A stretch of DNA of 64,000 nucleotides from Bacilli bacterium (GTDB lineage: Bacteria > Bacillota_I > Bacilli_A > RF39 > UBA660). Numbering within the stretch: position 1 is the first letter of the stretch; the number at the start of each line of letters is the position of its first letter. The position numbers and the translations under genes were made by a program. The notes beneath the pieces were generated by a model. The model made no database searches. It was not told the origin of the DNA and worked only from the letters and a program-made list of their open reading frames with translations. The DNA lies in the NCBI GenBank assembly GCA_017441845.1, contig JAFRVB010000008.1, positions 46,143 to 110,142 of the forward strand, read 5' to 3'. Below are positions 1-18,821 of this stretch, piece by piece.

Positions 1-126
1 GGCTCTAGTAATAAGATAAATAATCAATAATACACTAACTGCAAAAACAAGAGATACTTTTAAAAATCTCTTTTTATAAGTAAAGTATTTAATATTATTA
101 ATTTTACTCTTAATACTTTCTACCAT
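1..126 (-). CDS. N-terminal fragment of a membrane-anchored hypothetical protein (runs off the left edge)
   Basis: Reverse-strand ATG at 124-126 opens a frame with no stop to position 1 (MVESIKSKINNIKYFTYKKRFLKVSLVFAVSVLLIIYLITRA...). It has a hydrophobic anchor and starts 10 nt after the stop of the 198-aa gene, so it is probably in the same operon. Not in the ORF track because it is truncated. Confidence 0.3.
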   Translation of the reverse strand, partial: MVESIKSKINNIKYFTYKKRFLKVSLVFAVSVLLIIYLITRA

Positions 127-135
127 CAAACCACA

Positions 136-732
136 CTACCCTGTATAAGCTGTAATTGTTTCTCCGCCGTATTGAGTTGCTTTGAATTCAACTTCTAAGA
201 ATTGACTATTATCAAAATTACCACTAGGATCATCTGTAACATTATCGTTGTTAACCCAAGATAAATCTAAAGCAATATTAACTAGTGTAGTATCAATATC
301 ATCAACATCAACAACAGCTGTATATTTACTAACTCCTGTACGTACTAATGTAACATCAGTAGTATCGATATTTGTTAGAGTTAATATTTTATTTGAATCA
401 ACATTCTTATCAATAATCTCTAGATCAAATCTAACTGCTACATCTGTACCAGAAAAATCCAGTTTAATATTAAAAGTTCCTGTAGCACCGGGAGATAATT
501 TCCCAGTTCTAGTATGAGATGCATTCCAAACAACATCATCAATATCAACTATTTTATCGACTTCATTTGAAACAACAACATCATTAACTTTAATATTCCA
601 ACCGGCTATATTACCAGTAACGTCACCCTTAGTATTTGATTCATAAGAAGAATATGTAAGTTTAGTAACTAAAAATATGGAACAAATTAATATTATGCAT
701 ACAATAATTATCTTCTTAATTCTATTTTTCAT
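136..732 (-). CDS. Small secreted protein with a SipW-type (TasA/camelysin-like) leader
   Basis: The N-terminal hydrophobic segment is followed by LTYSSYES..GDVTGNIAGWNIKV, which resembles the TxAxFxD...G-T-L-D-L junction of TasA/CalY. Size is 198 aa, similar to camelysin. It lies in a cluster with a SipW homologue. Family call is by eye only. Confidence 0.45.
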   Translation of the reverse strand: MKNRIKKIIIVCIILICSIFLVTKLTYSSYESNTKGDVTGNIAGWNIKVNDVVVSNEVDKIVDIDDVVWNASHTRTGKLSPGATGTFNIKLDFSGTDVAVRFDLEIIDKNVDSNKILTLTNIDTTDVTLVRTGVSKYTAVVDVDDIDTTLVNIALDLSWVNNDNVTDDPSGNFDNSQFLEVEFKATQYGGETITAYTG

Positions 733-793
733 ACAAATTCTCCTATACTAAAATTATAACATAATAATCAAGTTTTTAATAGAAAAAAACTAA

Positions 794-837
794 TAAAAAA
801 GAGTAAAAATATCAATATTTTTTCATATTTTTACTCT
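794..837 (-). terminator. Rho-independent terminator after the class C sortase gene
   Basis: 12-bp arms gagtaaaaatat (801-812) / atatttttactc (825-836), with an A-run at 795-800 on plus giving a T-run on minus. Confidence 0.6.
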
Positions 838-858
838 TCTTTTAAATTTACCTATTTT

Positions 859-1764
859 TTAGATAACATCTTCATCATCTTTAATAGATTTTTTAGTATC
901 TAAAACTTCTACTTTTTTCTTTATTTTTTGGATATTTTTAGTCTTCTTTTTCCTAGGTTTTATCTTTTTCTTTCTCTTTTTCATCATCAAATAAATAAAT
1001 ATAGATAAAAGTATTAAAGATATAACTACTGAAGTATAAAATACTAAATCTACATGAGAAATAACTTTTTTATCAACTCTACCATTACCAGTTAAAGGAA
1101 TTCTCTCACCTCTAACTAATAATCTATGAGTATTGATAGAATATGGTGTACAAGTAACTAAAGTAACATAATCTTTATCTTTATATAACTTAATATCCTT
1201 AGTATCAGTAGGTTTAACAGTCTTTATTTTATCTACTTCATAAGCAACTTTCTTATTCAAAACATGGATATAGAAGACATCACCTTTTCTTAATAATCCT
1301 AAATCAGTAAATAACTTAGAACTAGGTAATCCTCTATGAGCTGCAATCACCGCATGAGTACCTTTTCCACCTATTGGGAAAGATGTACCTGCTTGATGAC
1401 CAGCACCCTTCTCCATAACATCACTATTAGTAGTATGATATATTGGTAATTTTACTCCAATCTTAGGTATTTCAATGTATCCCATCATACCATCTTTATC
1501 TAAATTTAATATTTTTAGATAACTATCATCTACTTTAAAATTCTCATCAATAAAAGAATCAACTACATCTAAATTAGTTAATTTTTTATTATAATCTTCT
1601 GCTTCCTTCAATAAATATGAATTATCTACACTATTATTTTTATAATTCTGAATAGCTTTATCAATCTCTTTACTATTCTTATTATTCATATATGAAGGAA
1701 CAAACATTAATAATAATCCACATATAAATAATATTACAAATATAAATATATATTTTTTCTTCAT
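859..1764 (-). CDS. srtC: Class C (pilin-type) sortase
   Basis: AHRGLP...GDVFYIHV...YVTLVTCTPYSINTHRLLVRGERI matches the class C TLVTCTPYGINTHRLLVRG signature. Both N- and C-terminal TM segments are present. Confidence 0.85.
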   Translation of the reverse strand: MKKKYIFIFVILFICGLLLMFVPSYMNNKNSKEIDKAIQNYKNNSVDNSYLLKEAEDYNKKLTNLDVVDSFIDENFKVDDSYLKILNLDKDGMMGYIEIPKIGVKLPIYHTTNSDVMEKGAGHQAGTSFPIGGKGTHAVIAAHRGLPSSKLFTDLGLLRKGDVFYIHVLNKKVAYEVDKIKTVKPTDTKDIKLYKDKDYVTLVTCTPYSINTHRLLVRGERIPLTGNGRVDKKVISHVDLVFYTSVVISLILLSIFIYLMMKKRKKKIKPRKKKTKNIQKIKKKVEVLDTKKSIKDDEDVI

Positions 1765-1787
1765 ACAATTATCATAACATATTATTA

Positions 1788-3869
1788 TTAAATAATCTCT
1801 AGTTCCTCTTCTACATTTTTCTCATTTTTATAATTAAGTATAAATAATACAAAACCAATTACTACTATAATTAAACCACTAAGTACATAAGGATAAATTC
1901 CAATACCACCTGCGACAGGTAACATATTTACTTTCTTATTACTTAATTTAACAGAATAAGTATTTTTATCTAAAGCCACTTTATGATTATCTATTCTCAT
2001 GATACCATTTCGATCAATTTTAACTTTTAATACTTCACTATTTCTCATAAAACCATCAGGATTATCAACTTGTTTAACATAATAAGTCTTATCTGGTAAT
2101 AATTCTTTAAAATATAATCCTTCATCTATTGGTGTAGTTAATAAATCACTATCATATAATTCATATTTACTACCAGATACTTCTCTATCTCTAGAATCAA
2201 CATCTTTCACAGCAAAATCAATATTAGAAGTATCAAAACTAGCCTTAGTCTTATAATCAACTCTATCATTTAGATAATAATTATTATTCGCAATTCCACC
2301 AATAATCTCTATTTCATTAACAGTATTCTTACTAAGTTCATTATTAGCTTTATATTTACCATAAACATTAATATATTTATATGGATCAATATTACTAATC
2401 TTAACAGTATTATTATTTAATACTTCATAATTATCATTCTTAACAAACTTAAATCCATTCAATTTACTCTTAATCATAATATCATTAATATTAAAATAAT
2501 CATTATTCTTAACAGTCACTACAAAATCTACTTCATCATTATTATGATAATAGTCTTTTTCATTAATAATTTGAGTTTTAATACTAGGAGTAAAATATCC
2601 ATATAATCTCATCCATTGTCCATAGATAATTACATTTTCTTTACCCATTTCAAACTCATTATCACTTAACCATCCTAAGAATTTATATCCTTTCGCATAA
2701 GGATATTTTTCTAATTTAACCTTATTTCCAGGAGAATAATACTTAGTTTCAGGTAATAATTCTAAGTAATTTTCTGGTATTACATCTCCTCTAAATCTAT
2801 AGCTAACACTATAAGTTTTCTTAACAAATTTACCAGTAACAGTAACATTACATTTAGGCATAGTAAACATATTATCACTGACTCTTATCTCTTCACATGT
2901 AGATGAAACACTCCATCCAGCAAAGACAAAGTCACCAATAACATCACCCTTCTTTAAACTATCTATCTTAACATCACTATCTGAATAATATTTCTTTTCA
3001 CTAGGAACAATATAACTATCTGGATTATCTCCAACTATTTCATATTTAACATTATATTTATCACTCTTAGTAAAACTACCAGTAAAAGTAACACTCTTAT
3101 CAGGCATTACAAAACTATTATTGATAATATCTACGTCACTACTCTTCCATCCACTGAATTCATAACCATCTACTTTAATATCACCAAGTACTTCAACAAT
3201 AGATCCTTCACTATAACCAAATCCTTGTGGTGGATTAGATAAATTAGCTGGTACATCTCCAGTATATTTATAACTAACTGCATGTAACGGAACATCTTTA
3301 CCTATAAAGACATGTTCTACATTAGTATATTTATAAACACTTTTCTCTTTAACACCAATAGTATTATAAAAATCCATTCTATTATTTTTAATCTCTCTAG
3401 CTGTTCTCGTTACAATACCAACAGTTAATCTACAACCTGCTTGTAGATTCTTTATTTTGAATGAAATCATTCTATTCTTAGGATTATATCTTAAACCATC
3501 TTTATTACCTACAACATATCCTTGACAACTAGTATTATCACTACGTTTAACAGCTCCTACAGAACCATCACTACTAGTAACAAATCTAACAAAATCTAGT
3601 CCTTTAGGTAATCTATCTTGAACATAAATATAATCAGAATAAACTTTAGAAGTTGCTCTATCAGAAGAGATTTTAACATCTTTATCAATACCATCATAAG
3701 TAATATCTAAATAGTAAACCAAATCAGTATTAGTCGCTATTCTAGTATCATTAGGTATTACTTCTGCTTTAGAACCTCTAGTTACTAAATATAATAACGA
3801 TCCAATTAATAGTAAAAAAACAAGCACTATTAAAAGAAAAAGTTTATTTCTAGAAATTCTTTTTTCCAT
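1788..3869 (-). CDS. Sortase-anchored surface protein / candidate pilin with Listeria-Bacteroides repeats
   Basis: The C-terminus carries LPVAGG, about 28 hydrophobic residues and an NYKNEKN tail. Three repeats of the GYxFxGW...MP..VT.TG.F type are present, plus a Cna-B/SpaA-like C-terminal segment. The start is moved to ATG 3867-3869 (MEKRIS), 8 nt after GGGAG. No YPKN pilin motif was seen. Confidence 0.7.
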   Translation of the reverse strand: MEKRISRNKLFLLIVLVFLLLIGSLLYLVTRGSKAEVIPNDTRIATNTDLVYYLDITYDGIDKDVKISSDRATSKVYSDYIYVQDRLPKGLDFVRFVTSSDGSVGAVKRSDNTSCQGYVVGNKDGLRYNPKNRMISFKIKNLQAGCRLTVGIVTRTAREIKNNRMDFYNTIGVKEKSVYKYTNVEHVFIGKDVPLHAVSYKYTGDVPANLSNPPQGFGYSEGSIVEVLGDIKVDGYEFSGWKSSDVDIINNSFVMPDKSVTFTGSFTKSDKYNVKYEIVGDNPDSYIVPSEKKYYSDSDVKIDSLKKGDVIGDFVFAGWSVSSTCEEIRVSDNMFTMPKCNVTVTGKFVKKTYSVSYRFRGDVIPENYLELLPETKYYSPGNKVKLEKYPYAKGYKFLGWLSDNEFEMGKENVIIYGQWMRLYGYFTPSIKTQIINEKDYYHNNDEVDFVVTVKNNDYFNINDIMIKSKLNGFKFVKNDNYEVLNNNTVKISNIDPYKYINVYGKYKANNELSKNTVNEIEIIGGIANNNYYLNDRVDYKTKASFDTSNIDFAVKDVDSRDREVSGSKYELYDSDLLTTPIDEGLYFKELLPDKTYYVKQVDNPDGFMRNSEVLKVKIDRNGIMRIDNHKVALDKNTYSVKLSNKKVNMLPVAGGIGIYPYVLSGLIIVVIGFVLFILNYKNEKNVEEELEII

Positions 3870-3888
3870 TAACAGCACTCCCTTTCTT

Positions 3889-6285
3889 TTATATTAATTT
3901 AATTAGATATGGATTGTCTTTAGTACCCATTCCATCAACAATCTTAACATTACCATTAAGAGATATAACTGGTTTAACTAAAGTACTATTATTACTTACA
4001 ATCTCTCCAGTTTTACCCTTAAATACATAACTATTACCATTATATTTATATGGACTCATCAAATAGAATTTGTCTCCATCAATAGCCCCAGAACTTAATA
4101 GATATTCATCGATACTTAACATTCCAATTGGATAAGTTAAAGCTCCATTACCTATCTTATTAGATACTGAGAAACTATCATTTTTCTTACAATCTAATGA
4201 TAAATTATTATTTTTAACTCTATCTAATGTCTCAAACTCTAAGTCTTCTGAAACACTTCTATCATTACAATAAGTAGTATCTTCAAGATAATTTCTATAT
4301 CTATATAGATTATTCTTATACCAATTATCTATATAGTATTTAATATAAGAATCATTAACATTATTAAAAGTATTATTAATTAACTCTTTAATATTCTTTT
4401 CTCCATCCAATGTTAAATAATAGATATAATTATCATCATAAGAAGTAATATAATATACTTTTTCACAATAATTATGATCATCTAAACAAGTATATTTTCT
4501 CTTAGAAGATATATCATAACTAGCATCATTAAGTTTATAAATACTATTATTATAACTAATACTACTACTATATTTATAATCATCTTTTGCAATTCTCTTA
4601 ATAACAGATTTCTTACCATACATATAAGATAAATCAGCTAATGAATTAGAATATTTATTAAAATTATATTTATTCATATAATAATCAGTAAATGTATTAA
4701 CACATTTATTATTACTTTGAACACCATTATAAATAATCTTAACTCCCTCAGTCTTAGTAGATCTAACTATTTGCCAACAATATCCAGCAAATACTAAGTT
4801 ATTATTGCTGTTACCTTTATAGTAGTAAATTGGTTTCTTAGTATTACCAAGACTATGAATACCATCACTATAAGAATCTTTTACTTCATTACTCTTTAAT
4901 AAATCATAGACACTCAAAGATTTATGAATAGTTCCTTCCATACTCAAACTAACTTTCATCTTAGACCAAGTACCTCTAATTACTACATTATTTTCTTTCA
5001 TAGTAAAGTAATCATCATTAATCTTTTTAACTTTACTACTAACTTCCCATCCTTTAAATTGATATCCATTACACTCTAATTCACTATCATCTATTTTTAC
5101 ATTTTCAAAAATAGAATAACTTTGAGTTTTGGGTACATGTTTTAATACACATTCCTTTGGAGCATTAGGATCATATATAACATCATAACTATTTTTAACT
5201 ATTGGAGTTAAATCACTCTTAAATTTCTCACTTAATTCACCAATTTTACTATTAACTTTAATATTTTTAGAGACATTATATATACCATCAATCTCTCTAT
5301 ATTTTTCCTTTAATTTAATATTAAAACTCATAGTCGCATCAAATCCAGATAATAATTTATTATCTAAATTCCAAGTAACTTTATTTTTATTAACACTAGT
5401 TTTACCTATACTACTTTGAATATCGCTATTAATTTCAAAATAATTATTATCAATGACTTCATCAATATTAAATTTCTCATATTTAATAGGTAACTTAGTA
5501 GTAACATTAATCATCTTCAAAATATTATTATTATCACTAATATAAGCAGTATCAGTAATATTATCTATTTCATCAATTAATTTATTACCTAAATCATATT
5601 GAAGACCAACTATATTAATATTTTTATAATTATCTTTAATATATTTATATTCAGTAACTTCTAAAGGGCTATTCAAAGTAGGATAAGAATTCATAATCAT
5701 TAAAACAACTACTTCTCTACTACCATCTCTAGTTCTTAATAAATTATCTACCTTACATAAAGCATCATAATAATTAGTACCTCTATGTATACTGATTCTA
5801 TTAATATTATTAACTAAAGTATCATAATTATCAGTAAAATTACTGATAAGAGTTGCTCTATTATTATAAGTAATTAAACTAACTCTATTATTATTCTTTA
5901 ATAGTTTTTTAACATTACCCTTCAAAGCATCTTTCAAACTATTATAACTATTTTTATTAACAAAATTACTATCATTCACAACTAATACTATATCTTTAGC
6001 TTTACCACTCTCATAAGCTACACTATCTACTTTAAAATTAACTTTAGCTTCACTTCTACTTAACCAAGTAACACTCTCAGTAATCTTAAATGATCCCCCT
6101 ACCTCATTAGTATAAGAAGATTTTTCACTTAAAAAATTAATTTCATTACTAGTTTTAACTTCTGCGAAAGTTTTTCTCACTAAAAGTATAAATAATAGAA
6201 GCACTATAAAAACAAACAGTCCTATTAAAACTCTTCTAACCGTTGAAATATCTAGTTTTAAATCACTTATAAAACTATTCATCAT
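3889..6285 (-). CDS. Large secreted/anchored protein with a vWA-like domain (degenerate MIDAS) and a C-terminal module paralogous to the next gene
   Basis: Leader ...FILLVRKTFA|EVKT. The vWA-like segment reads DIVLVVNDSNF..RVSLITYNNRA..GTNYYDAL..VVVLMIMNSYP. One repeat GYQFKGW..VVIRGTWSK is present. The C-terminal third shares CWQ, YIDNWY..LEDT.YCN.RS, LTYPIG and VKPVISL..DNPY with the 780-aa protein. No LPxTG. Confidence 0.6.
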   Translation of the reverse strand: MMNSFISDLKLDISTVRRVLIGLFVFIVLLLFILLVRKTFAEVKTSNEINFLSEKSSYTNEVGGSFKITESVTWLSRSEAKVNFKVDSVAYESGKAKDIVLVVNDSNFVNKNSYNSLKDALKGNVKKLLKNNNRVSLITYNNRATLISNFTDNYDTLVNNINRISIHRGTNYYDALCKVDNLLRTRDGSREVVVLMIMNSYPTLNSPLEVTEYKYIKDNYKNINIVGLQYDLGNKLIDEIDNITDTAYISDNNNILKMINVTTKLPIKYEKFNIDEVIDNNYFEINSDIQSSIGKTSVNKNKVTWNLDNKLLSGFDATMSFNIKLKEKYREIDGIYNVSKNIKVNSKIGELSEKFKSDLTPIVKNSYDVIYDPNAPKECVLKHVPKTQSYSIFENVKIDDSELECNGYQFKGWEVSSKVKKINDDYFTMKENNVVIRGTWSKMKVSLSMEGTIHKSLSVYDLLKSNEVKDSYSDGIHSLGNTKKPIYYYKGNSNNNLVFAGYCWQIVRSTKTEGVKIIYNGVQSNNKCVNTFTDYYMNKYNFNKYSNSLADLSYMYGKKSVIKRIAKDDYKYSSSISYNNSIYKLNDASYDISSKRKYTCLDDHNYCEKVYYITSYDDNYIYYLTLDGEKNIKELINNTFNNVNDSYIKYYIDNWYKNNLYRYRNYLEDTTYCNDRSVSEDLEFETLDRVKNNNLSLDCKKNDSFSVSNKIGNGALTYPIGMLSIDEYLLSSGAIDGDKFYLMSPYKYNGNSYVFKGKTGEIVSNNSTLVKPVISLNGNVKIVDGMGTKDNPYLIKLI

Positions 6286-6334
6286 AATGCTCCATTATCA
6301 ATTTAATTTTATCATTTTTAAACTCTCTTTTCAA

Positions 6335-6369
6335 CAAAAAAAGAGATATAAAATTAACTTATATCTCTT
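6335..6369 (-). terminator. Rho-independent terminator after the 780-aa gene
   Basis: aagagatataa (6341-6351) / ttatatctctt (6359-6369), with an A-run on plus immediately upstream giving a T-run on minus. Confidence 0.6.
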
Positions 6370-8710
6370 ATCTAGATAAATCTCCATAAACTGTAATATC
6401 ATCAATATTCAACCAAAATTTATCATAATCTTTATGCCTAAAGGCAATATACAAAGTTGATTCATCATATTCACCAAGAGAATAATTATATTCTGTCCAA
6501 TCATCTGGTACTTGATGCAACCCAATAAGTGTTGTCATTTGAGAAGGATCAGGAGTAGGTCCATAAAGAACTTCCATACTATCTAGATAATTTACATCTT
6601 GAGAAACAGCCCAAAAATCAAGAGTAATATTTTCATAATTACTAAGTGATATAGCAGGAGTAATCAAATAATTATCTGCATTAATAGCAATAGCATTACT
6701 ACCATTACCATTATCAAAAGATTGACTGGATACTGCATAATTACCAGAATGAACTTTAACACTTCCACCTCCATCACCAGCTGCACCAATTAGTCCCCAA
6801 ACATGTTCATCACCATCAGCATCTAAATTTGTCCAATCATTAGAAAGACTACCAGATTCAAAATCTTCACTAAATAACATCAGATTCCTAGTACTTTCAA
6901 CAACATATGGATCATTCTTACTGCCTGTTCCTGAGGTATACTCTGTGCCTGGTTTTAGAGATACTGCTGGACGAACACCATATGTATTATGTACGCTACT
7001 GCTAGTAGAGTTGCCCGAATAATTGACATTACCCTCACTAGCAGCATAGTAGTAGAATAAAACAGGTGCACCGAGCCAATAATCTTGTCCTGTTTTTCTA
7101 AGATTATTATTATTTAATAATTCCATTTCTTTACGACTCGCCAAACCAATCGGATAAGTAAGTTTTGCTTTGTTGTTTGACACACTAAATTTATCTGTAT
7201 CATTTATGCAAATTAATGAATCATAGTTAAAGTACATATATGTAGTTATACCACCTCCATTTGGATTCCATTCATTTGCACTTGGATTTTTTTGACTTCT
7301 ATTATTACAAAAAATTGTATCTTCTAAATAAGATGTATAACTTATCATATTATTAGAATACCAATTATCTATATATGCTTTTATTGTAGAATTTGTTGTG
7401 TTTATATCATCATTATAAAGCATTTCATCTAACGCATTTTCTACACTTTTTCCACCAGTTAAATTTATATAGTAAATGTATTTTACATATTGAATACCTG
7501 AAGTAGAATATGGTTCAATTACATAGTATACATATGATAAAGTTTGACACTCACCCGTTCTATTAAAACATGTATAATGATGTGTAGCTAAATTAGTCTT
7601 ATCTGTATTTGTTATATTCCACGTTTGATATCTATCACTACTTAATGTATACTTATCAGTTCCACTATCATACGTGAAACCATTGGCATATATATAATTA
7701 TTTGTTAACAGTGATACATAATAATATCCGTTATATTTATCAGGATAAGTAATATATCTTAAGTCTGTACAACTTGCAGAATCATCGCCACAAGTATAAT
7801 AGGTTTCATATGTCGAGTAATTACTATACCAATCTGCTTTCTGTATTGTTATAGCATTGGTTAAAGTATATGTTCCGTTACTTTCAGTATAGCCAGTACC
7901 TAAAGTTAAATTAGTATTATAATAATTTAACATATGTCCGTTTTCCATTCTAAATCCAAACACAAAACCACTTTCCCCAGCTATGATATAATATACGGCC
8001 GAACAGGATGTTGCCCCTTGACTAGGACATGTATACAAGCCATTTACTGAAGAATATGAATTTTTCCATAATCCTTCTGTTGTACCAGTTAATGTATATT
8101 TACCAGTAGAGCTATCATAATTTACACCCGTTCCATAATAATATGATCCAGCCGTCATTACTACATTTGTTATAACCTTATCATAATTTTCTGATTTTGT
8201 ACCAGGAATATATCTTGTATTATACATATATCCCACATCGGCTAATGCCTCATAATTATTATTAAATGTTGATGTGCCTATTTGCTGTCCAGTTCCAGTC
8301 CTATTACATTTTCCATTAGAAGGAGTACCATTATATAGTAGTTTTACTCCTCCTGTATCCGTAGTTCTTATCATTTGCCAGCAGAATCCACCAAAAATAA
8401 CATTCCATTTATCTAATATTGTGTTGGCGTTTGTATCATTACTAGCATACCAATGGTATATGTTTTTCGTGGGTTCATCTGTAAATGAGTCATGATGAGT
8501 CCCTGTATATTCTTTCGCATATGTACCTAATCGTGCTTCTCTTTTTAAGACATCATACAGAAGTTTTGAATCATCATGTTCTTCATATTCTACATCTCCT
8601 GATACTGTTAAATTTTGATTTAAAGCACTAAAACCTACACTTATTAGTGTAGTTATACAAGTTAATATCGTAATAAATAAAGTTATACAAAACTTATAAT
8701 TGTTCTTCAT
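6368..8710 (-). CDS. Large secreted protein: conserved leader, Tyr/Gly/Thr-rich region, shared CWQ...VRPAVSL module, C-terminal choice-of-anchor-J / cleaved-adhesin-like domain
   Basis: The leader ...LISVGFSALNQNLTVSGDVEY is shared with the 708-aa BspA-like protein. The module FGGFCWQMIRTT..YIDNWYSNN..LEDTIFCNNRS..LTYPIGLA..YWLGAP..GVRPAVSLKPG..KNDPYVV is paralogous to the 798-aa protein. The last ~170 aa read FSEDFESG..DADGDEHVW..DNYLITP..LDFWA..IAFRH..LNIDDITVYG. Confidence 0.6.
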   Translation of the reverse strand: MKNNYKFCITLFITILTCITTLISVGFSALNQNLTVSGDVEYEEHDDSKLLYDVLKREARLGTYAKEYTGTHHDSFTDEPTKNIYHWYASNDTNANTILDKWNVIFGGFCWQMIRTTDTGGVKLLYNGTPSNGKCNRTGTGQQIGTSTFNNNYEALADVGYMYNTRYIPGTKSENYDKVITNVVMTAGSYYYGTGVNYDSSTGKYTLTGTTEGLWKNSYSSVNGLYTCPSQGATSCSAVYYIIAGESGFVFGFRMENGHMLNYYNTNLTLGTGYTESNGTYTLTNAITIQKADWYSNYSTYETYYTCGDDSASCTDLRYITYPDKYNGYYYVSLLTNNYIYANGFTYDSGTDKYTLSSDRYQTWNITNTDKTNLATHHYTCFNRTGECQTLSYVYYVIEPYSTSGIQYVKYIYYINLTGGKSVENALDEMLYNDDINTTNSTIKAYIDNWYSNNMISYTSYLEDTIFCNNRSQKNPSANEWNPNGGGITTYMYFNYDSLICINDTDKFSVSNNKAKLTYPIGLASRKEMELLNNNNLRKTGQDYWLGAPVLFYYYAASEGNVNYSGNSTSSSVHNTYGVRPAVSLKPGTEYTSGTGSKNDPYVVESTRNLMLFSEDFESGSLSNDWTNLDADGDEHVWGLIGAAGDGGGSVKVHSGNYAVSSQSFDNGNGSNAIAINADNYLITPAISLSNYENITLDFWAVSQDVNYLDSMEVLYGPTPDPSQMTTLIGLHQVPDDWTEYNYSLGEYDESTLYIAFRHKDYDKFWLNIDDITVYGDLSR

Positions 8711-8741
8711 ATTGCTTTATCCTTTATATATAAATTATAAC

Positions 8742-8770
8742 AAAAAAAGAAGTATATTTAAACACTTCTT
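8742..8770 (-). terminator. Rho-independent terminator after the 211-aa gene
   Basis: agaagt (8748-8753) / acttct (8764-8769), with an A-run at 8742-8748 on plus. The stem is short. Confidence 0.4.
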
Positions 8771-9406
8771 TTATAAAACATCTAGATCATCTTTCTTTTC
8801 TTCTACGACAGGTTTTTCTTCTTTTAATTCTTCAGGTTTAGACTCCTCTTTTTTAGGTGGAGTTTCGCCTCTCCTCTCATAGTTTAAGACTATAACAAAT
8901 TCATAAATTTGATATACAAATACTAATAGAATTGGTAGTAATACGAATAACAAGAATCCTATTCTAGTAACTAAGAATGACATTATTGAACCTAATCCTC
9001 CCATAGCATTAGCATACTTTCCTAGAGTTCTAGTTTGAGCAACATTCAACTTAGTTTTCTTATTTCCACTTACTAAAGTATCTATAGTATATAGTGAATT
9101 ATAATCATCTTTTTGAATATTCTCTACTATACCAGTTCTTATAACATATCTATCATTAACAGTAGCATAATAGTAAATTCTATCTCCTTTAACTATATCA
9201 GTACTACTCTTAACAATTAATAAATCTCCTGATTTAGTATTTTCTACATATTTAGCAGTTGTACCATCTATAGGAGAAATAGTATACTTACCAAATTGAG
9301 TAAAACCAAATTTATTTCTACATAATATACAAGAAGTTAAAAATATAACATAAACTATAATAATTACTTCTATAATATTCCATAATGTTTTTAAAATATT
9401 TTTCAT
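8771..9406 (-). CDS. SipW-like membrane protein lacking the catalytic residues (putative pseudo-peptidase)
   Basis: It aligns by eye with B. subtilis SipW and with the 431-aa neighbour: FGFTQFGKYTISPIDGT vs FGY....SGSMEPT; VKGDRIYYY..YVIRTGI vs KGDVITF..LVTHRII; LGKYANA + TM vs IGKYADI + TM. However SGSM, THR and KGDxN are all absent. The C-terminal tail is charged. Confidence 0.45.
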   Translation of the reverse strand: MKNILKTLWNIIEVIIIVYVIFLTSCILCRNKFGFTQFGKYTISPIDGTTAKYVENTKSGDLLIVKSSTDIVKGDRIYYYATVNDRYVIRTGIVENIQKDDYNSLYTIDTLVSGNKKTKLNVAQTRTLGKYANAMGGLGSIMSFLVTRIGFLLFVLLPILLVFVYQIYEFVIVLNYERRGETPPKKEESKPEELKEEKPVVEEKKDDLDVL

Positions 9407-12400: not shown

Positions 12401-15400
12401 ATGTAGACGTTAGCTTTACTTGTAGCAGGACTAACTTCTCCAGTAGCAGCGGCATTTCCTGAACCAAAGACACTACCTGTTGCTGGTTTTCCAATCTCTT
12501 GGTCAGTACCAATTACTGAATCACCATCAATGTAAATTGATGAATTTCCTTTAACAACGGCAGTAGAACCATTACCTCCGGCATAAGCAGAACCATTAAT
12601 TTCCCCATTAGTTATACGAAGTACAGTATTACCAGTAACAACTCCTTGGTTACCTCCACCATAGACATTTCCAGTAATAGTTGAATCATCAATGTCTACT
12701 GAGGTATTACCATTAACTTGAGCTTGGTTACCTCCACCATAAAGTACTCCAATTTCAGATCCATGTTTAACTATAACAGTTGTTGTACCAGTATTGGCTT
12801 GATTACCTCCACCATATACAGCATTAACTGTAGCTTTATCTATAGTAACTTTAGGATTTGATGTAATTCCACCTTCGTTATTACCTCCATATACGCTACC
12901 AACATTAACAGTATTACTATTATTTCCAACTTGAACATCAGAATTAGTAACATTTCCTTGTTCGTTAGCACCACCATATACATCAGTAATATTTCCACCT
13001 AGTATCTTAACATTAGTATTAGTAACTCCTATTTTGTTACCTCCACCAAAGACACTACCAACATCTCCGGCATAAGTGAAGACATAAGAATCACCAACTG
13101 AACCATCTACATTATTACCACCATATACTTCATTGATATTAATATTTCCATTAGTACCAGTATTAACACCAATTACTACTCTGGTTTGATTAACTGTACC
13201 ATTACTATTTGATCCACCAAATACTTGGTCAGCAGTACCAGATAATACAGTAACATTAGTCCCAGAAGTAACACCAGCAGCGTATCCACCACCATAGACA
13301 TCATTTACTGTACCACTAGTGATTGTTACATTTGTAGTTGTACAACTAGCTTGGTTTCCTCCACCATAGATATCACCAGAAATAGTTGCACCATTGAAAT
13401 CAACATTAGTTGTTGTTACTGTACCTCCCAAGTTGTTTCCTCCATAGATGTTCGCAACAGAACCAGAAGTTGCAGTAACATGTGTAGTTGTAACATTACC
13501 ACTATTATTAGATCCTCCATATATGTTAGATGTTACAGTAGAACCTTGTAAATAAACATTAGTTGTAGTTTGACCAGTGTTATTTCCTCCACCATAAACA
13601 TTTCCAATAGTTCCACCTTTTAAGTAAACAACATCACCCTTAGCAGGAGAACCCATTTGATCATTTCCACCATATACAGCAGTAATATTACCACCATTTA
13701 TATTGACTGTAACATCACCCCAAACATTAGGAGTAAATGTTCTATTATTGTAAGTACCACCCTTAGCGCCTCCAAAGACACTTCCAGTTACAGTACCTTT
13801 ATTAACATTAACTGTCGTTGTGTAATTTGATGTTGAATTAGAATTATAGTTTCCATTTACAGTTCCAAATGCAGATCCACCATAAACATTCTCTCCAATT
13901 TTTAAACTAGTTGCGCTTGTAGTATTAGTAGCATCTCCGACATTTACTGTAACATTTCTAGTAACCGCTGTACCATTAGTTCGTCCAGTACCACTAGTTA
14001 CTCTACCTCCTTCACCACCACCATATACACTCTTAGTGACAGTTCCATTAACTAAATTGATATTAACATTTCCATAAATTGTACCTTTGGCATTACTACC
14101 ACCATAGATAGAATCAGAAACAGTACAATCACCATCCATAGTGATATTAATATTAGAAACTACTGAGGAATCACCAGCACCATTGTTATTACCTCCACCA
14201 TAGACACTACCTTTAACATCACCAGATTTTAAAATTATTTTGGTATTAGTAGTACCACTAGCATTTAATCCAACAGCTCCAAAGTTACCTCCACCATAGA
14301 CATCACCATTGATAGTACCACCATCAATGAGTACTGTAGAGTTTAAAGCTGTACCAATGTCATCTCTTGAATTGTTACCATTACCAATACCAAAGACATT
14401 ACCAATTCCTTGACCAAATGCAGTCGAAGTTCCAGTAACACCAACAGTCGCTGTACCACCAACATAGACAAATGTTGAACCATTCAAGATACCTGTTTCA
14501 GAACTATAGCCACTAATCGCGTATCCATTTGATCCTCCAAAGACACTTGATCTTACTGTCGAACCAGTTAGGTTAATAATACGATTACCATAAGTCTCGG
14601 CAGAACCAGCTCCACCAAAGACAACATCAATAATTCCACCTTTTAAGTTCATAAAAGTATCATTTTGGTTAGTTCTTGTACTACTAGTACCAAGCCCTCC
14701 AACCAAAACGTAGATATCTCCACCTTCAACTACAATTGTACGAGTAGCATATACAGTACCACCACGTCCACCAACATAGATTCCAGTGAATGGGTCGTAT
14801 TTACTGGTACCAAATTTACCACTCTTAACATAAATCGTATAAAGGTTTCCTTGCTCACTAGAAGAACGTAAAGTACCTCCAGCAGCACCTTGTACAGAAT
14901 AATAAACATCTAAGTTTGTATTATTAGCATTTGTAATTCTATCATAATCACAACCTAAAATTAGTTGCCCATCTAAGTATAAATTACCAGAATATTGTTT
15001 AGTTTCAGTACCATAGATATTACTATATCTACCACTCTCAACAATAGTTGTATATCTTTCTGGAGCTGATGATGAACCAACAGTTGTTGTAATACCTCCA
15101 GCACTTCCTCCAAAGACAGAAGTTGCTGCTACATAACGTGCATCAGTAATACCTCTACCTATTTTTAAGTTATGATAATTTGCAATAATTGCTACAGTAT
15201 TATTAGAAAGACCAGAGTTAGTCAACTGAGTAGACCTAGCTGTTCTATTGTAAAAATACATATACTCAATTCTAGCATCTTCATTTAACATCAAATAGTT
15301 ATTAGAGTTTGTAATTCTACGATTACTATAAAGTGTACCATTATCCATACCAGTAACAGTACATGGCTTAGATATAGTAAACGCTGTAGTATCAGAAGTA

Positions 15401-17499
15401 ATAAGCATGATATTAGTATCTCTAGTAACTAAGTAATAATATTGTTCATCTCCAGAAGCTAAAGTAGTATTAAGATCTTGTACTAAATCATAAACTTCAC
15501 AAGTACCAGAACATGTTCCAGATAATTGAGATCCAATACTATTGTAATAACCAACTTGAGATTGTCCATTACTTAAACTTTTCTTTTCAAAGTATCCCGC
15601 AACACTATCTCCAATATTAATTAAGTATGAATAGTTATAACTTACAGGTTGAGGAAGAGTACCATTATATACTTGTGGATTACCATTATTACGTAACGTA
15701 TAAACAGTTTCAGTAGTATATTCATATACTCTCAAATAATATGTACAATCTTGAGCAACCCATCCTTGACGTCTATCCCAATAAGGTGTACATGAACTAT
15801 TCTCTAAACTTTGTCTATTTTGGTTAACTGCTCCAGCAGGATAAGGAACACCACTTTGATTAGTAGTAGAATTTATAGTTCTTCTAACATAAACTTCTGG
15901 GAAAGTAATTCCAGGAGCATAAACTGGTGTTTTATTAGTAATAGGAACCATACCTCTACTCTTTAAACTACTTTGATTATTACCAGTTACTTTAGTAGCT
16001 TCAGTCCATGAAGCTTGAACATTAATATTTACTACATCTCCATCATAATTACTAGCAATAGGTACTTTCAAATATCTAACATAAACATCAGTATCTAGTG
16101 TAATTGTCGCATTAGGATAATTAGTAACCCATCCATTAAATGCTTTATCATTAGGTCTATCTGCATAAGGACTATCAATTAATGGAATCTCAATATATTT
16201 ATTACTTCCACTACCTTGAATAGGATAATATTTATAATAAATAAACTTAGATACTTGTTCATCTAAAGATACATATCCTACAGCACTACTATCATTAATA
16301 TCTTCTCCATCATAAGAAATATAAACTTTAGCTAAATTAGTATTAGTATAAAGATTCAAATTAGTACCATCAGGTATAACTCCATCAGTTTTACCTGTAT
16401 AATTACGACCCATAAAGTCATTATAGTCACTTTCTAAATCATTAACATATAAAGTATCTCCTGATCTACCACTATCATGTAGTGTAATAGTTCTAGGATT
16501 AAATCCAAAAGATGTAGGTTTATTAACAGGTTTCTTGTCTTCTACTCCAACATAGAATAAATTCTCACTATCATATTTCCATACTAAGTCTTTTAAATCT
16601 CTATTAAATAAATCTAAAGCAGTAGTTACACTATACTCTTCATCTTCATATACTAGTTTGTTTTCTCCACTCATTTTAATTACATATTCACTAGTAATAC
16701 CTTCTTCAATATAATTGAATTCTTCTAACTCTAAACTAGTATCAACTCTATAAACAACATTAGTAATATTAGTAATAAGATTACTACTTACTATAGCAAC
16801 ATTAGTATTATATTTAGAACTAATCTTACCATCTACAAAGATATTTTTAATACTTTTAATCTCATCAATACTACCAGTTAATAAACCTATACCACTACCA
16901 GCAATACTCTTAGTATTAGCAAGATTAATAGTAACTCTAGATACACTAACGTTATAAATATCACTATCTCCAGTAATAAATCCTGCTAGTCCACCTACAA
17001 ATAACATCTTACTATTTTGAACAGGTTCTATGTTAAAGTTACTAATATTTAAATTCTTAATTGAAGCATCTTCTAAATTAGAAAATAATCCATAGCATTC
17101 AGAATTATCAATATCATAACTACTAGTCATATTGATATTAGAAATGAAATTTCCATTACCATCTAAATGTCCTTTAAAAGTGGCAAAAGGAGTAATATAG
17201 TGATTATCCAAGTCTATATTAGCTCCTAATTTATAGTATTTATCTACATATTCTTCATCTTGTTCTTCCAAGACTTTCTTAAAGTACATCAACTGATTTC
17301 CATCATTGATGACATACGGATTAGCCTCAGTACCATTACCCGAAGCAAAATCTGTACCAACGGTAATACCATCCCATTTTGTATAAGTAATCTCTGCTAA
17401 AGAACCATTAGAAAAAAAAGAAACAATACTAAAAGAAAAAACTAATAGTACAAACATAGCAAAAGTAATATACATTAATTTATTCTTTGTATTGTTCAT
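9451..17499 (-). CDS. Giant (2682 aa) secreted adhesin-like protein: GLUG-type N-terminal region, ~1000-aa Gly-rich beta-helix repeat core, Ig-like C-terminal region
   Basis: Single uninterrupted 8-kb ORF. Leader ...FFSNGSLA|EITY. The N-terminus reads GTEANPYVI..FKGHLDGNGNFISNINM..YGLFSNL..FVGGLAGFI (GLUG-like). The core repeats [VI][YF]GG[GSN]N..G.V..T.V every ~25 aa. No LPxTG or other recognisable wall anchor. Confidence 0.8.
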   Translation of the reverse strand: MNNTKNKLMYITFAMFVLLVFSFSIVSFFSNGSLAEITYTKWDGITVGTDFASGNGTEANPYVINDGNQLMYFKKVLEEQDEEYVDKYYKLGANIDLDNHYITPFATFKGHLDGNGNFISNINMTSSYDIDNSECYGLFSNLEDASIKNLNISNFNIEPVQNSKMLFVGGLAGFITGDSDIYNVSVSRVTINLANTKSIAGSGIGLLTGSIDEIKSIKNIFVDGKISSKYNTNVAIVSSNLITNITNVVYRVDTSLELEEFNYIEEGITSEYVIKMSGENKLVYEDEEYSVTTALDLFNRDLKDLVWKYDSENLFYVGVEDKKPVNKPTSFGFNPRTITLHDSGRSGDTLYVNDLESDYNDFMGRNYTGKTDGVIPDGTNLNLYTNTNLAKVYISYDGEDINDSSAVGYVSLDEQVSKFIYYKYYPIQGSGSNKYIEIPLIDSPYADRPNDKAFNGWVTNYPNATITLDTDVYVRYLKVPIASNYDGDVVNINVQASWTEATKVTGNNQSSLKSRGMVPITNKTPVYAPGITFPEVYVRRTINSTTNQSGVPYPAGAVNQNRQSLENSSCTPYWDRRQGWVAQDCTYYLRVYEYTTETVYTLRNNGNPQVYNGTLPQPVSYNYSYLINIGDSVAGYFEKKSLSNGQSQVGYYNSIGSQLSGTCSGTCEVYDLVQDLNTTLASGDEQYYYLVTRDTNIMLITSDTTAFTISKPCTVTGMDNGTLYSNRRITNSNNYLMLNEDARIEYMYFYNRTARSTQLTNSGLSNNTVAIIANYHNLKIGRGITDARYVAATSVFGGSAGGITTTVGSSSAPERYTTIVESGRYSNIYGTETKQYSGNLYLDGQLILGCDYDRITNANNTNLDVYYSVQGAAGGTLRSSSEQGNLYTIYVKSGKFGTSKYDPFTGIYVGGRGGTVYATRTIVVEGGDIYVLVGGLGTSSTRTNQNDTFMNLKGGIIDVVFGGAGSAETYGNRIINLTGSTVRSSVFGGSNGYAISGYSSETGILNGSTFVYVGGTATVGVTGTSTAFGQGIGNVFGIGNGNNSRDDIGTALNSTVLIDGGTINGDVYGGGNFGAVGLNASGTTNTKIILKSGDVKGSVYGGGNNNGAGDSSVVSNINITMDGDCTVSDSIYGGSNAKGTIYGNVNINLVNGTVTKSVYGGGEGGRVTSGTGRTNGTAVTRNVTVNVGDATNTTSATSLKIGENVYGGSAFGTVNGNYNSNSTSNYTTTVNVNKGTVTGSVFGGAKGGTYNNRTFTPNVWGDVTVNINGGNITAVYGGNDQMGSPAKGDVVYLKGGTIGNVYGGGNNTGQTTTNVYLQGSTVTSNIYGGSNNSGNVTTTHVTATSGSVANIYGGNNLGGTVTTTNVDFNGATISGDIYGGGNQASCTTTNVTITSGTVNDVYGGGYAAGVTSGTNVTVLSGTADQVFGGSNSNGTVNQTRVVIGVNTGTNGNININEVYGGNNVDGSVGDSYVFTYAGDVGSVFGGGNKIGVTNTNVKILGGNITDVYGGANEQGNVTNSDVQVGNNSNTVNVGSVYGGNNEGGITSNPKVTIDKATVNAVYGGGNQANTGTTTVIVKHGSEIGVLYGGGNQAQVNGNTSVDIDDSTITGNVYGGGNQGVVTGNTVLRITNGEINGSAYAGGNGSTAVVKGNSSIYIDGDSVIGTDQEIGKPATGSVFGSGNAAATGEVSPATSKANVYITGGTIYGNVYGGANTSVVYGNTNVYLGTEAMPSGVTLTEADLHIYGTVFAGGEANASGSDIYDFSFVSVTDDAQIIIDGKDYGTHSHDFIVNGSFFGSGNNSVIADTATSTIYIRNLGTRDHINESVSIQRANKVVIDNSCLELSGAIDSTNEYQTYKYSISRVPDFTIKNGTMLLLRENANLLETFKSMVGEDGQEVKADVDIDDESKTVTRTVDNRLYMLANKALNVATSQDATVPGEVWGMTFFGMYTGTGHNPNFGVYEDSYNYGDTTESTNYIFAGSYVKGAHVTDHDIEVDGFYTNVNANDTYTELKTQYITPHPNSADYYIWSIGVNTINYEFNLSASKYSSLGTYNLVMDDFGTGSTTFNVLDFDAADLEDGISLVDSNNVPKVAYDATTANSTFGISMKAETREWTSYGTTKLLSVNNGDYTGTETYKTDTQSIAPSLMFYFYHAKNITYTGDLGTVVLTLQALTPRNAIEFNEQLVTITINLDAIEFDMDDAYDASITYGKKYDMPSATAVNITNRSQFSAYFSMVASPESFKKFYGDDGDNYHAIVSDYALPVGAEITMIDTSVDGEPKEYYYTVDATNYAQKTQQLQTDHEVTYLLSDFIAMDSTTTTNTYDDETMNQIYYNSTYNLVVEEFMFIVDLKNCTNTGENKGNTFLFELRNNEDRTMYYVLAPRQEHMVYSTYDSANSTLTETVNMGSFVYQDIDNNVTLTTAVTYNVTDGRESIIDTNYESNAMGINLEIIDHSGNTVSSSLLTGTSIHLGNQDYFADADGIFRIKLAGKVSNLTNNMVFKTDKLLPAGNYTFRFSLFSSSDGMHAPANPVVTDKNVTVVATTSSIVVNGVDENKVVDGALALNELGNNHNAYTVKYTSTLNNPNIRVSLYKRTTNDSEDTTYNEVDITSLFDVNLSSPNHPQSLYEKQITLSSSPISIDWDFQSSLTSGSYKLTFKLYDSDTLIDSDYEMIIVKKKLVSGS
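12060..15130 (-). repeat. In-frame degenerate ~75-nt (about 25-aa) beta-helix repeat array inside the giant gene
   Basis: Runs such as VYGGGNNTGQTTTNVYLQGSTVTSN / IYGGSNNSGNVTTTHVTATSGSVAN / IYGGNNLGGTVTTTNVDFNGATISGD / IYGGGNQASCTTTNVTITSGTVND. Boundaries are read from GITDARYVAATSVFGGSAGG (~15120) to FFGSGNNSVIAD (~12100). Confidence 0.7.
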
Positions 17500-17525
17500 A
17501 AGTCCTCCCCAAAAATTATGTTAGA

Positions 17526-18821
17526 TTATTCATTTACATAATTTTTAATTTTAGCTAGTCTTTCAATCTTATCTAATTCAAATATGTCATTATTATCATA
17601 TTTCTTAGATATCTTCTTCATAAAGCTCATAATATTTTTAATCTGTTTCTTAGAGTAACCATCACCCTTTTTAATAACTCTGAAATGATCTTCTTTATCA
17701 ATCATGATCTTATATTTCATAATTTTAAATATTCCATCAAAGAATGCTTCATCATTGTAGATGATTGCTAAGACTAAGATTCTTAAGAATACATATATCG
17801 GCATCTCATATATTTTATTTCTAAGATTTTCATATAAACCTATCTTTTCTAAATCATAATCATAAATCTCTTTAAATGATGGATGTTCTACATTTTCAAA
17901 TAAACTCTTAGTATCTCCAAGATAAATAATATTAGCTAACTTATAGATGTATTGATATTTAGTTAACCATTTCTTATTGATTCTAGAAGTATCTATAGAA
18001 TTATTTTTAACTCTCAATAGATTATTAATCTGTTCAATAAGTTCTATTTCTTTATCTCTTTGACTATTCGTAATAGTAACAATGTTATTAGATTCAATAT
18101 CAAGAACCTCTTCTTCTTGAAGTACTTCTATACCATCGTTATCTAAAACTTCTACTTCTTGTATTTTCTTTATATCTTCTATTTCCTTCAAAGGAATAGT
18201 TATTGTTAAACCACTATGTTCATAATTCTTTCTATCTTTAGGTGAACTAAATACATCTTGTGGTAATACTTCTTTATCAAAATCATGAACTACTTTCTCT
18301 TCTCCCTCTTTGACAATATATTTCTTAAAAATTTTATCGAAGTTAAGAAGAGCAACACCAATTACGATGATCAACAGTACAGCGATAAACTCAAGTATCG
18401 TCTTTGGCGAGATGATTCCAACTACTTTACCAATAACACTGTTTCTAGTAATCGCATCATCTTGAGTATTATTCGCATCTCCCTTAGTAATTATTCTGTT
18501 TCCACTAGTTTGAATAATTCTGTGAGTGATAATATCTCCGTTTTTATTTTTATATGAAATAATGTCATTGTTTTTAACATTATCTGTTAAACGTACAAAA
18601 ATTATGTCATTCACTTCAATAGTTCCACTCATTGATCCAGTCGCAACTACGAAGTAAGAATAACCAAAAATATTAACATAATCTTTCTTCATAATATCTG
18701 TTACTACAAAGGTATAAACAGACAACATAATTAGCAACACTAAAAAGCCATAAGCAACATACTTAATATTCGCTTTAATGATGCCTAAAATTTCCATAAT
18801 TTTATCTCTCACACTATTCAT
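17526..18821 (-). CDS. sipW: SipW-type (archaeal/ER-type, S26B) signal peptidase I with a ~270-aa C-terminal extension
   Basis: FGYSYFVVATGSMSGTI..NDIISYKNKNGDIITHRII..ITKGDANNTQDD..VIGKV, followed by a TM segment, tracks B. subtilis SipW motif for motif (SGSMEPT, THRI, TKGDNN). About 270 further residues follow the second TM segment. Confidence 0.85.
   Translation of the reverse strand: MNSVRDKIMEILGIIKANIKYVAYGFLVLLIMLSVYTFVVTDIMKKDYVNIFGYSYFVVATGSMSGTIEVNDIIFVRLTDNVKNNDIISYKNKNGDIITHRIIQTSGNRIITKGDANNTQDDAITRNSVIGKVVGIISPKTILEFIAVLLIIVIGVALLNFDKIFKKYIVKEGEEKVVHDFDKEVLPQDVFSSPKDRKNYEHSGLTITIPLKEIEDIKKIQEVEVLDNDGIEVLQEEEVLDIESNNIVTITNSQRDKEIELIEQINNLLRVKNNSIDTSRINKKWLTKYQYIYKLANIIYLGDTKSLFENVEHPSFKEIYDYDLEKIGLYENLRNKIYEMPIYVFLRILVLAIIYNDEAFFDGIFKIMKYKIMIDKEDHFRVIKKGDGYSKKQIKNIMSFMKKISKKYDNNDIFELDKIERLAKIKNYVNE

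Follow-up and report, generated by a model that had tools for sequence, protein, structure and literature searches.

We analyzed a 64,000-nucleotide stretch of contig JAFRVB010000008.1 (assembly GCA_017441845.1, positions 46,143 to 110,142; hereafter the window), and in particular the surface-structure locus at its positions 1 to 18821. The window is AT-rich (~27% G+C) and belongs to the metagenome-assembled genome of an uncultured 'Bacilli bacterium' from gut or rumen. The locus is a mosaic: an insert specific to this lineage sits in a conserved backbone, and the whole is not a single conserved hybrid system. It comprises eight complete open reading frames (ORFs), all on the minus strand and all at the positions given in the original prediction, which was made from this sequence alone, and a ninth ORF, which begins at 126 and continues past the left edge. 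From left to right, its features are as follows.

1 to 126, minus strand: first 42 codons (signal or transmembrane helix) of a 204-amino-acid (aa) paralog; metagenome contig L001 carries the remainder
136 to 732, minus strand: 198-aa secreted beta-sandwich protein, first gene of the conserved core (module C)
790 to 850, minus strand: terminator-like hairpin 3' of the sortase gene, then an extended -10 element ahead of the 198-aa gene
859 to 1764, minus strand: 301-aa class C sortase (SrtC; NF033745) with a C-terminal transmembrane helix and the acidic tail DDEDVI
1788 to 3878, minus strand: 696-aa LPVAG protein with Listeria-Bacteroides repeats, a CnaB/SpaA domain, and the acidic tail EEELEII
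3889 to 6285, minus strand: 798-aa secreted protein (cassette B) with a VWA domain, an InlB-type repeat, and a shared module
6333 to 6368, minus strand: terminator-like hairpin 3' of the 780-aa gene, then a promoter-like element
6368 to 8710, minus strand: 780-aa secreted protein with a DUF6273-type module and a C-terminal choice-of-anchor J / Cleaved_Adhesin domain
8738 to 8775, minus strand: terminator-like hairpin 3' of the 211-aa gene, then the extended -10 element TGTTATAAT
8771 to 9406, minus strand: 211-aa SipW paralog, predicted to be catalytically dead, with two transmembrane helices and the acidic tail DDLDVL
9451 to 17499, minus strand: 2682-aa secreted giant protein (module A) with a Gly-rich center and ~25-residue repeats
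17526 to 18821, minus strand: 431-aa SipW-type signal peptidase (module A) with Ser and His kept and a ~290-aa C-terminal extension

The locus continues on L001, a 110-kb metagenome contig with 100% identity to window positions 1 to 10732. On this contig, the 198-aa gene is followed by genes encoding proteins of 204, 304, and 345 aa and, further along, a 534-aa McrB-like GTPase, a 366-aa McrC-like protein, a 229-aa SipW, a 256-aa secreted protein, and a 922-aa protein. The ORF at the left edge, previously described as anchored, is instead the signal end of the 204-aa secreted protein, and the SipW-type genes belong to a larger system that runs off this edge and includes the McrB-like GTPase and the McrC-like protein, which lay beyond the view of the original prediction. 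Judged by its sequence, the backbone is a predicted CoCoPALM-type system, a kind that has been named but remains uncharacterized. Because the 232-, 368-, and 554-aa genes recur in the same order in related loci, the system also extends past 18821. Most of the backbone lies beyond the left edge of the window, and a further part is found at 19808 to 23431, to the right of the following SDR gene.

18995 to 19753, divergent: SDR oxidoreductase, between the 232/368/554-aa genes and the 431-aa gene
19808 to 21472, minus strand: 554-aa cytoplasmic protein ending in EEEEEVETI, an occasional member of the system
21637 to 22743, minus strand: 368-aa secreted protein with the SipW-type N-terminus TASTYAWFTANQ
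22733 to 23431, minus strand: 232-aa membrane protein, paired with the 368-aa gene and outside the right border of the finding

The SDR gene interrupts genes that in other genomes all belong to one system.

Conservation of the locus was assessed in 80 metagenome loci encoding the GTPase at 58-94% identity, each of which was searched with every protein of the locus. One metagenome scan found at least 499 GTPase relatives; a single-protein scan of genomes returned four loci, with no upstream context. The GTPase was present in 80 of the 80 loci, the McrC-like protein in 74, and the 229-aa SipW in 68. The 304-, 256-, 204-, and 198-aa proteins were encoded in 56, 52, 45, and 44 loci, respectively, 431-like and 211-like proteins in 42 and 40, the 368-aa protein in 35, the giant in 32, and the 232-aa protein in 31. 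At the other end of the range, 780/798-like proteins were found in five loci, and the sortase and the LPVAG protein in two each.

Twenty-nine of these loci were informative as to gene order, with at least 2.5 kb of sequence upstream of the 198-like gene. A 211-like gene lay directly upstream of the 198-like gene in 25 of them and the giant lay upstream in 18, and the sortase was encoded in two, both of near-identical lineages (GTPase, at least 93% identity). No sortase was encoded in any of the 27 loci with a GTPase identity of at most 75%. Core gene order was kept in independent contigs, with varied surroundings: L007 and L010 had the core together with the 431-aa gene, the giant, and the 211-like gene and were cassette-free; L012 had the core, a 211-like gene, and a short SipW-type gene with neither giant nor cassette; and L022 had the core alone. 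The original prediction had proposed a hybrid locus that combines two pathways. The two pathways do lie side by side, in the same orientation, and are kept together in diverged relatives, but their pairing is not conserved, and the cassette comes between two genes that are neighbors in 25 of 29 loci.

The three internal terminators previously placed near 8750, 6350, and 815 were recovered. The hairpins with U runs at 8738-8775, 6333-6368, and 790-850 have folding energies of -10.3, -10.2, and -18.8 kcal/mol and z-scores of -4.8, -5.5, and -6.9, respectively, and 0 of 200 shuffles folded as well. A consensus terminator scan missed all three because their stems are AT-rich. Downstream of each hairpin lies an extended -10 or a -35/-10 element. 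The element TTGAAA...GATAAAAT, which in the window lies after the terminator of the 780-aa gene, stands ahead of the 798-aa gene in L018 and L020, and the hairpin of the sortase gene is conserved in both, together with its extended -10. Relatives without the cassette have the same terminator-plus-promoter layout at the junction of the 211- and 198-aa genes. These signals mark the sortase genes (859 to 8710) as predicted separate transcription units.

The junction between the 211- and 198-aa genes takes other genes as well. In L016, from another lineage, it is occupied by a reverse-oriented gene encoding a 197-aa membrane / zinc-ribbon protein (9223-9816), and it therefore behaves as an insertion hot spot. 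The distribution of the sortase, the adjacency of the 211- and 198-aa genes, and the pre-existing terminator and promoter in relatives together indicate that the cassette is a lineage-specific insertion at an operon break. The arrangement persists in several diverged relatives (198-aa protein, 77-100% identity), and identity is 60-72% for cassette proteins where it is 77-90% for core proteins.

Each cassette protein was compared with known families. The 301-aa protein matched the class C sortase family NF033745 at 260.9 bits (cut-off, 160; E, 9.5e-78), as had been predicted; its best matches in the PDB are pilus (class C, SrtC) sortases, its catalytic His (AAHRG), Cys (TLVTCTP), and Arg (VRGER) motifs are all visible, and its C-terminal hydrophobic segment spans residues 234-263. 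The 696-aa repeat protein ends in LPVAG, a hydrophobic helix, and a tail, and this anchor, also noticed earlier, is the sole sorting signal in the locus. Also recovered was the relationship between the 780- and 798-aa proteins, which have a two-part module in common (BLASTP, 4e-21 and 9e-17); the 798-aa protein has a VWA_2 match (Pfam, 4e-10), and the 780-aa protein has a choice_anchor_J domain at its extreme C-terminus (1e-20). The 798-aa VWA protein ends in ...PYLIKLI and has no sorting motif and no C-terminal helix, and so is not a tip adhesin with a sorting signal of its own. The locus encodes no shaft (major) pilin, with no GramPos_pilinBB match and the one sorting signal only.

A one-base change from AAG to TAG at position 8283 of L002 (about 2450 in the window) truncates the LPVAG protein ahead of its CnaB domain and sorting signal. 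The contig, from one metagenome sample, is otherwise 99.9% identical, and the TAG is a null allele of natural origin or else an error in sequencing.

Outside the lineage, the sortases closest to SrtC (42-50% identity) come from ordinary pilus operons, those of L024 and L025. These operons carry genes for a tip-like LPNTG protein, a minor pilin, a GramPos_pilinBB major pilin, SrtC, and a second sortase. The acidic tail of SrtC goes back to a clade of sortases encoded in ordinary pilus operons, with no CoCoPALM system within 10 kb of them. Over its full length, the 696-aa protein shares 42% identity with the first product of a classical pilus operon, an LPNTG protein. The N-terminal half of the 798-aa protein resembles (33% identity, 2e-83) a VWA protein that is encoded next to such an operon and likewise is without a sorting signal. 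Since its genes are orthologous to classical pilus-operon genes, the cassette is a reduced pilus operon: it descends from an ordinary one, having kept the sortase, the tip-like adhesin, and the VWA protein and lost the shaft and base pilins. The 780-aa gene is found only in this species and is absent from L018, L020, L026, and L027, in which the 211-aa gene directly precedes the 798-aa gene; since these relatives (198-aa protein, 77-82% identity) pass from 211 to 798 directly, the 780-aa gene is a younger addition.

Two candidate roles for proteins of these kinds were rejected. Unannotated 227/228-aa genes of the classical pilus operons, considered as SipW-like chaperones, encode minor pilins with a VPNTxD signal. 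Proteins of the 780/798 type are not general CoCoPALM cargo, as housekeeping genes lie between the homolog in L032 and the system.

Four membrane proteins of the locus end in an acidic tail of the form [DE][DE]x[DE][IVL][IVLF]-COOH, predicted to lie on the cytoplasmic side. They are the 211-aa SipW paralog (8771-9406; DDLDVL), the 229-aa SipW (L001, 15934-16623; DEEVI), SrtC (859-1764; DDEDVI), and the LPVAG protein (1788-3878; EEELEII). An acidic-hydrophobic tail was present on 0 of ~40 other ORFs of the window and on 6 of 494 (1.2%) unrelated ORFs in the 80 loci. It was also present on 63 of the 120 nearest sortases from other taxa, including those of ordinary pilus operons, and since the sortase clade in ordinary operons carries the tail, that of SrtC is inherited. 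Classical orthologs of the LPVAG substrate end in basic tails; the acidic tail of the LPVAG protein was therefore newly gained. The tail may be a docking or localization signal. It was rejected as a mark of CoCoPALM membership, because half of the nearest sortases and only 15-21% of the SipW-like proteins in the 80 loci carry it.

The interpretation in the original prediction was partly supported, and these tails bear on one part of it, the composite appendage. In a sharpened form of this explanation, a class C sortase without a shaft would link the LPVAG adhesin covalently to a lysine in a component processed by SipW (a TasA-like subunit, the giant, or the VWA protein), and sortase, substrate, and SipW paralogs would be gathered via their common acidic cytoplasmic tails. 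The gained tail of the substrate (EEELEII, as opposed to the basic tails of its classical orthologs) and the missing shaft pilin keep the idea alive. It also draws on the retention of the cassette at one site through substantial divergence, on the single sorting signal in a locus that lacks a GramPos_pilinBB-type pilin, and on the presence of a tail that is rare in unrelated ORFs on the 211-aa protein, the 229-aa SipW, and SrtC alike. However, all 27 of the more distant loci are without a sortase, the cassette forms predicted separate transcription units, the tail of the sortase is inherited from a clade in ordinary pilus operons, one natural population has a nonsense allele of the LPVAG gene (unless this is a sequencing error), and no candidate acceptor lysine or pilin motif was identified. 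We consider this explanation unlikely, though worth keeping in view; it is possible, from the sequences, that the two pathways act on one structure.

The family nearest to the 431-aa protein is SipW (NCBIfam NF046067; E, 4.6e-13), which agrees with its earlier designation as a SipW-type signal peptidase, although the protein remains under every curated cut-off, with 49.2 bits against 190 for SipW, 30.3 against 47 for TIGR02227, 22.5 against 23.3 for Pfam S24, and 18.8 against 22.9 for Pfam S26. In an alignment of seven catalytic-type sequences that included it, the Ser column (GSM) and the His column (HR) were kept in all. The 431-aa protein has transmembrane segments at 21-45 and 133-166, matches the 229-aa SipW of the locus (BLASTP, 5e-11), and has orthologs in L007 and L010 (48-55% identity). 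Neither it nor the LPVAG protein had a match in a sequence search of the PDB.

In hhalign, the 211-aa protein proved to be a homolog of the catalytic SipW-like set (probability 97.7%, E 2e-12, 173 columns); it has the same topology, with two transmembrane helices. The original prediction of a SipW-like protein without catalytic residues holds: T or S replaces His in each of the five members, and the Ser column, with S, A, or N, is not conserved. We therefore class the 211-aa protein as a putatively dead SipW paralog. Since its gene accompanies the 198-aa family in at least 23 sortase-free loci, it belongs with the SipW backbone and not with the sortase.

The 2682-aa giant had been described as a beta-helix protein. 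Its central region has Gly-rich repeats of ~25 residues, with 24 [YF]GG motifs, mostly ~25 residues apart, and 17-22% Gly across residues 800-1700; these repeats fit a beta-solenoid without proving one. Family searches and the PDB gave no match for the giant, which has no sorting signal, and its orthologs in L007, L010, and L016 are 42-53% identical. Signal-peptidase sites of the ordinary (-3,-1) type are present in the large proteins of the locus (TFA|E, SKA|E, and SLA|E). Any signal peptidase could release these proteins. On the far side of the SDR gene, the N-terminal region of the 368-aa protein aligns with the 256-aa family (hhalign probability 95%). The 232-aa membrane protein had no Pfam or NCBIfam match; its homologs (41-53% identity, 31 of 80 loci) always lie directly upstream of a 368-like gene. 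Homologs of the 554-aa protein (23-28% identity, 15 of 80 loci) usually follow one.

The small secreted proteins are the likely substrates of the backbone peptidases. The 198-aa family comprises 1217 clusters at 50% identity (E of at most 1e-3), nearly all of ~200 aa, and the 198-aa protein had no Pfam or NCBIfam match. An AlphaFold2 (AF2) model from 12 close sequences (pLDDT 54.8) was discarded; 71 diverse members were then used, and the resulting model is a beta-sandwich (pLDDT 90.9). With Foldseek against the PDB, the TasA fiber 8aur was the only match at an E value of at most 1e-3 (probability 0.97), with TM-scores of just 0.24-0.28, and three other donor-strand fibers were among the top 50 matches. 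A hidden Markov model of the family matched Bacillus subtilis TasA at an E value of 3e-6, over the last strands, which have the motif F.ATQ[WY].G in common. In hhalign, the 198-aa family matched the TasA family with probabilities of 16-21%, and the match at 16% had a P value of 0.0016 (reversed control, P 0.45). A sequence search of the PDB with the family profile gave chance matches only. At residues 26-32, the 198-aa protein has a strictly conserved TYS|SYES, and TasA has TWA|AFND at residues 25-31; in solved TasA fibers the mature protein begins at A28. The earlier label of TasA/camelysin-like thus stands for a resemblance in motif and, tentatively, in fold only: Peptidase_M73, the family match it implied, was found in 0 of 71 relatives, and the likeness would be one of how the proteins work, not of family membership.

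The 198-, 204-, and 256-aa families are paralogous to each other (hhalign probability 96-97%, E 6e-10 to 2e-9, with profiles from the 80 loci), and the 304-aa family links to the 204-aa family (hhalign probability 94%). Four or more paralogs with a strictly conserved mature N-terminus fit a set of major and minor subunits with a donor strand, and we infer that the small proteins would be the major and minor subunits of a TasA-like fiber. TasA was first described as a spore-coat-associated protein, and the small proteins could instead be monomeric surface or spore-associated proteins that SipW merely releases, as the low TM-scores of the fold match and the lack of TasA family membership might suggest. 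Given the four or more paralogs with their conserved mature N-terminus and the recurrence of donor-strand fibers among the Foldseek matches, this is the least probable of the explanations that we considered. A 198-type domain also occurs at the N-terminus of longer metagenomic proteins, P0115 (3424 aa), P0166 (660 aa), P0165 (407 aa), and P0035 (321 aa), which are either fusions of subunit and adhesin or artifacts of gene calling.

The cytoplasmic part of the backbone resembles a restriction system. The only PDB sequence matches of the 534-aa GTPase were to Escherichia coli McrB (3e-5). AAA_5 was detected, the Walker A (GTGKT) and Walker B (LDEMN) motifs are visible, and a single transmembrane segment (48-86) is followed by a charged helical stretch. 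Its signature GTINNDDS reads either as NxD with a second D or as NxxD, and HMMER aligned it gaplessly to McrB NTAD. The 366-aa protein matched DUF2357, the N-terminal domain of McrC (1.7e-10), and no nuclease domain was detected in it. The 229-aa SipW gene follows the McrC-like gene, and the GTPase/McrC/SipW trio is found in 68-74 of the 80 loci. Bell et al. named CoCoPALM in 2024 in one paragraph, with analysis deferred (PMC11090510), and no later literature on it was found in the library searched.

The McrB/McrC-like pair could thus be a defense or conflict module derived from type IV restriction, with the small secreted proteins as effectors or sensors and the cassette and giant as mere neighbors in a variable island. 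McrBC ancestry, the match of the GTPase to a PADLOC candidate defense family (PDC-M26A, 1.6e-37), the foreign gene at the junction in L016, and the restriction of the McrC-like match to the DUF2357 N-terminal domain are in keeping with this explanation. Against it, the GTPase is strictly syntenic with SipW-type peptidases and secreted paralogs in 68-74 of the 80 loci and is membrane-anchored, no nuclease domain was detected, the fold match of the secreted proteins is of fiber type, and the authors of CoCoPALM tied this GTPase clade to pilus assembly (PMC11090510). We regard a defense role as highly improbable.

TasA-type fibers are thought to assemble extracellularly without an energy source. 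The strict coupling of TasA-like subunits and SipW to a restriction-derived membrane GTPase points to a control or assembly step that is not yet known. In a bolder version, the GTPase and its McrC partner would be the cytoplasmic engine or gate of a hitherto unrecognized, nucleotide-dependent pathway that builds TasA-like donor-strand fibers, into which sortase and substrate were recruited via an acidic docking tail, and the LPVAG adhesin would be covalently joined to a fiber component. Taken as a whole, this chain of steps is quite improbable.

The mosaic reading, in which a CoCoPALM-type fiber backbone carries an inserted and independently transcribed reduced sortase cassette, is probably correct. 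Its module C core consists of the 198-, 204-, 304-, and 345-aa proteins, the GTPase, the McrC-like protein, the 229-aa SipW, and the 256-aa protein, and module A (the 431-aa SipW-type peptidase, the giant repeat protein, and the dead SipW paralog) is a common accessory. The Sec pathway would export the small paralogous beta-sandwich proteins, SipW-type peptidases would cut them at T-[YW]-[SA]|[SA]-[YF], and the cut proteins would assemble extracellularly as TasA-like donor-strand fibers with major and minor subunits. The dead SipW may act as a membrane platform or chaperone, the giant as a fiber-associated or separately displayed adhesin, and the GTPase/McrC pair as a regulator or motor at the cytoplasmic face. 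Cassette B (the 798-aa VWA protein, the 696-aa LPVAG adhesin, and SrtC) was inserted at the terminator/promoter junction between the 211- and 198-aa genes in this lineage only, and the 780-aa gene was added by this species alone. The most likely role of the cassette is simply to fix the single LPVAG adhesin to the envelope, which would give an adhesion island one more adhesin.

Several observations weigh against the mosaic reading. Retention of the cassette at one site across diverged relatives challenges its independent function, the cassette is without any shaft pilin, and its LPVAG substrate gained an acidic tail absent from classical orthologs. Peptidase_M73 (PF12389) was matched by neither the 198-aa protein nor any of its 71 relatives, the Foldseek TM-scores are low (0.24-0.28), and hhalign against the TasA family profile was weak (probability 16-31%). 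In the GTPase, NxD and NxxD are not separable in TINNDDS without a phylogeny, and no FtsB/DivIC Pfam match was found in its N-terminus, even at E values up to 1. Both fiber formation and the role of the GTPase in CoCoPALM systems are, moreover, things that we infer.

The backbone system itself is the more interesting object. It is common in gut and rumen Firmicutes, and its proteins are still annotated as hypothetical. The sortase insertion amounts to a natural experiment, with a pilus cassette stripped of its shaft and re-housed in another fiber locus, and offers a concrete case for asking whether covalent (sortase) and non-covalent (donor-strand) surface assembly can join.

Further surface or conflict genes lie elsewhere in the window. 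A separate class B sortase (TIGR03064, 9e-48), unrelated to the fiber locus, adjoins a gene for a 490-aa protein at 29273-31526; the protein ends in VPTTGANPGTGD, a hydrophobic helix, and a basic tail and is probably the class B sortase's own substrate. The 700-aa protein encoded at 32440-34542 has an N-terminal methylation motif of prepilin type (N_methyl, 1e-7) and so may be a large type IV pilin-like protein. A 926-aa protein with a C-terminal HEPN domain (pEK499_p136), encoded among housekeeping genes at 47781-50561, may be a defense or toxin protein. A 708-aa DUF285 / BspA-type leucine-rich-repeat surface protein is encoded at 56586-58712; DUF285 also occurs in the VWA protein beside the L025 pilus operon.

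The locus was compared with four kinds of known systems. Classical sortase pilus operons (L024 and L025) have an SrtC with 42-47% identity and the same acidic tail, a first pilus gene to whose product the 696-aa protein is 42% identical, and a neighboring VWA protein to which the 798-aa protein is 33-36% identical. Unlike these operons, the cassette is without a shaft pilin, a base pilin, and a second sortase; its motif is LPVAG or LPQAG where theirs is LPNTG, and its substrate tail is acidic where theirs is basic.

SipA is of the bacterial Ser/Lys (P-type) kind. The Streptococcus pyogenes FCT pilus islands are like this locus in that SipA/LepA is an inactive signal-peptidase homolog encoded with a pilus sortase, and SipA is reported to be essential for pilus polymerization (PMC4049620). 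The 211-aa protein differs from SipA in being of SipW type, with two transmembrane helices, and in accompanying the 198-aa family in at least 23 sortase-free loci.

The SipW operons compared were tapA-sipW-tasA of B. subtilis, sipW-tasA-calY of B. cereus, and sipW-bsaA of Clostridium perfringens (PMC7395162). As in sipW-tasA operons, a SipW-type peptidase adjoins small secreted beta-sandwich proteins, and the N-terminal motif T-[WY]-[AS]|[AS]-[FY] is as far from the start as the cleavage site is in TasA. In contrast to these operons, at least three detectably paralogous families (198, 204, and 256 aa) replace TasA and TapA, two predicted active SipW-type enzymes occur with one dead one, and a GTPase/McrC pair, which Bacillus sipW-tasA operons are without, is obligatory.

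The closest likeness is to CoCoPALM as described (PMC11090510), which has an McrB-like GTPase with an N-terminal transmembrane helix and helical segment, an adjacent DUF2357 McrC homolog without a detectable nuclease domain, and signal-peptidase-family partners, in Bacillota. A sortase cassette inside such a locus goes unmentioned in that paper (PMC11090510), and the TasA-like paralogs, the dead SipW, the giant, and the 232/368 pair, all found here, extend its description (PMC11090510).

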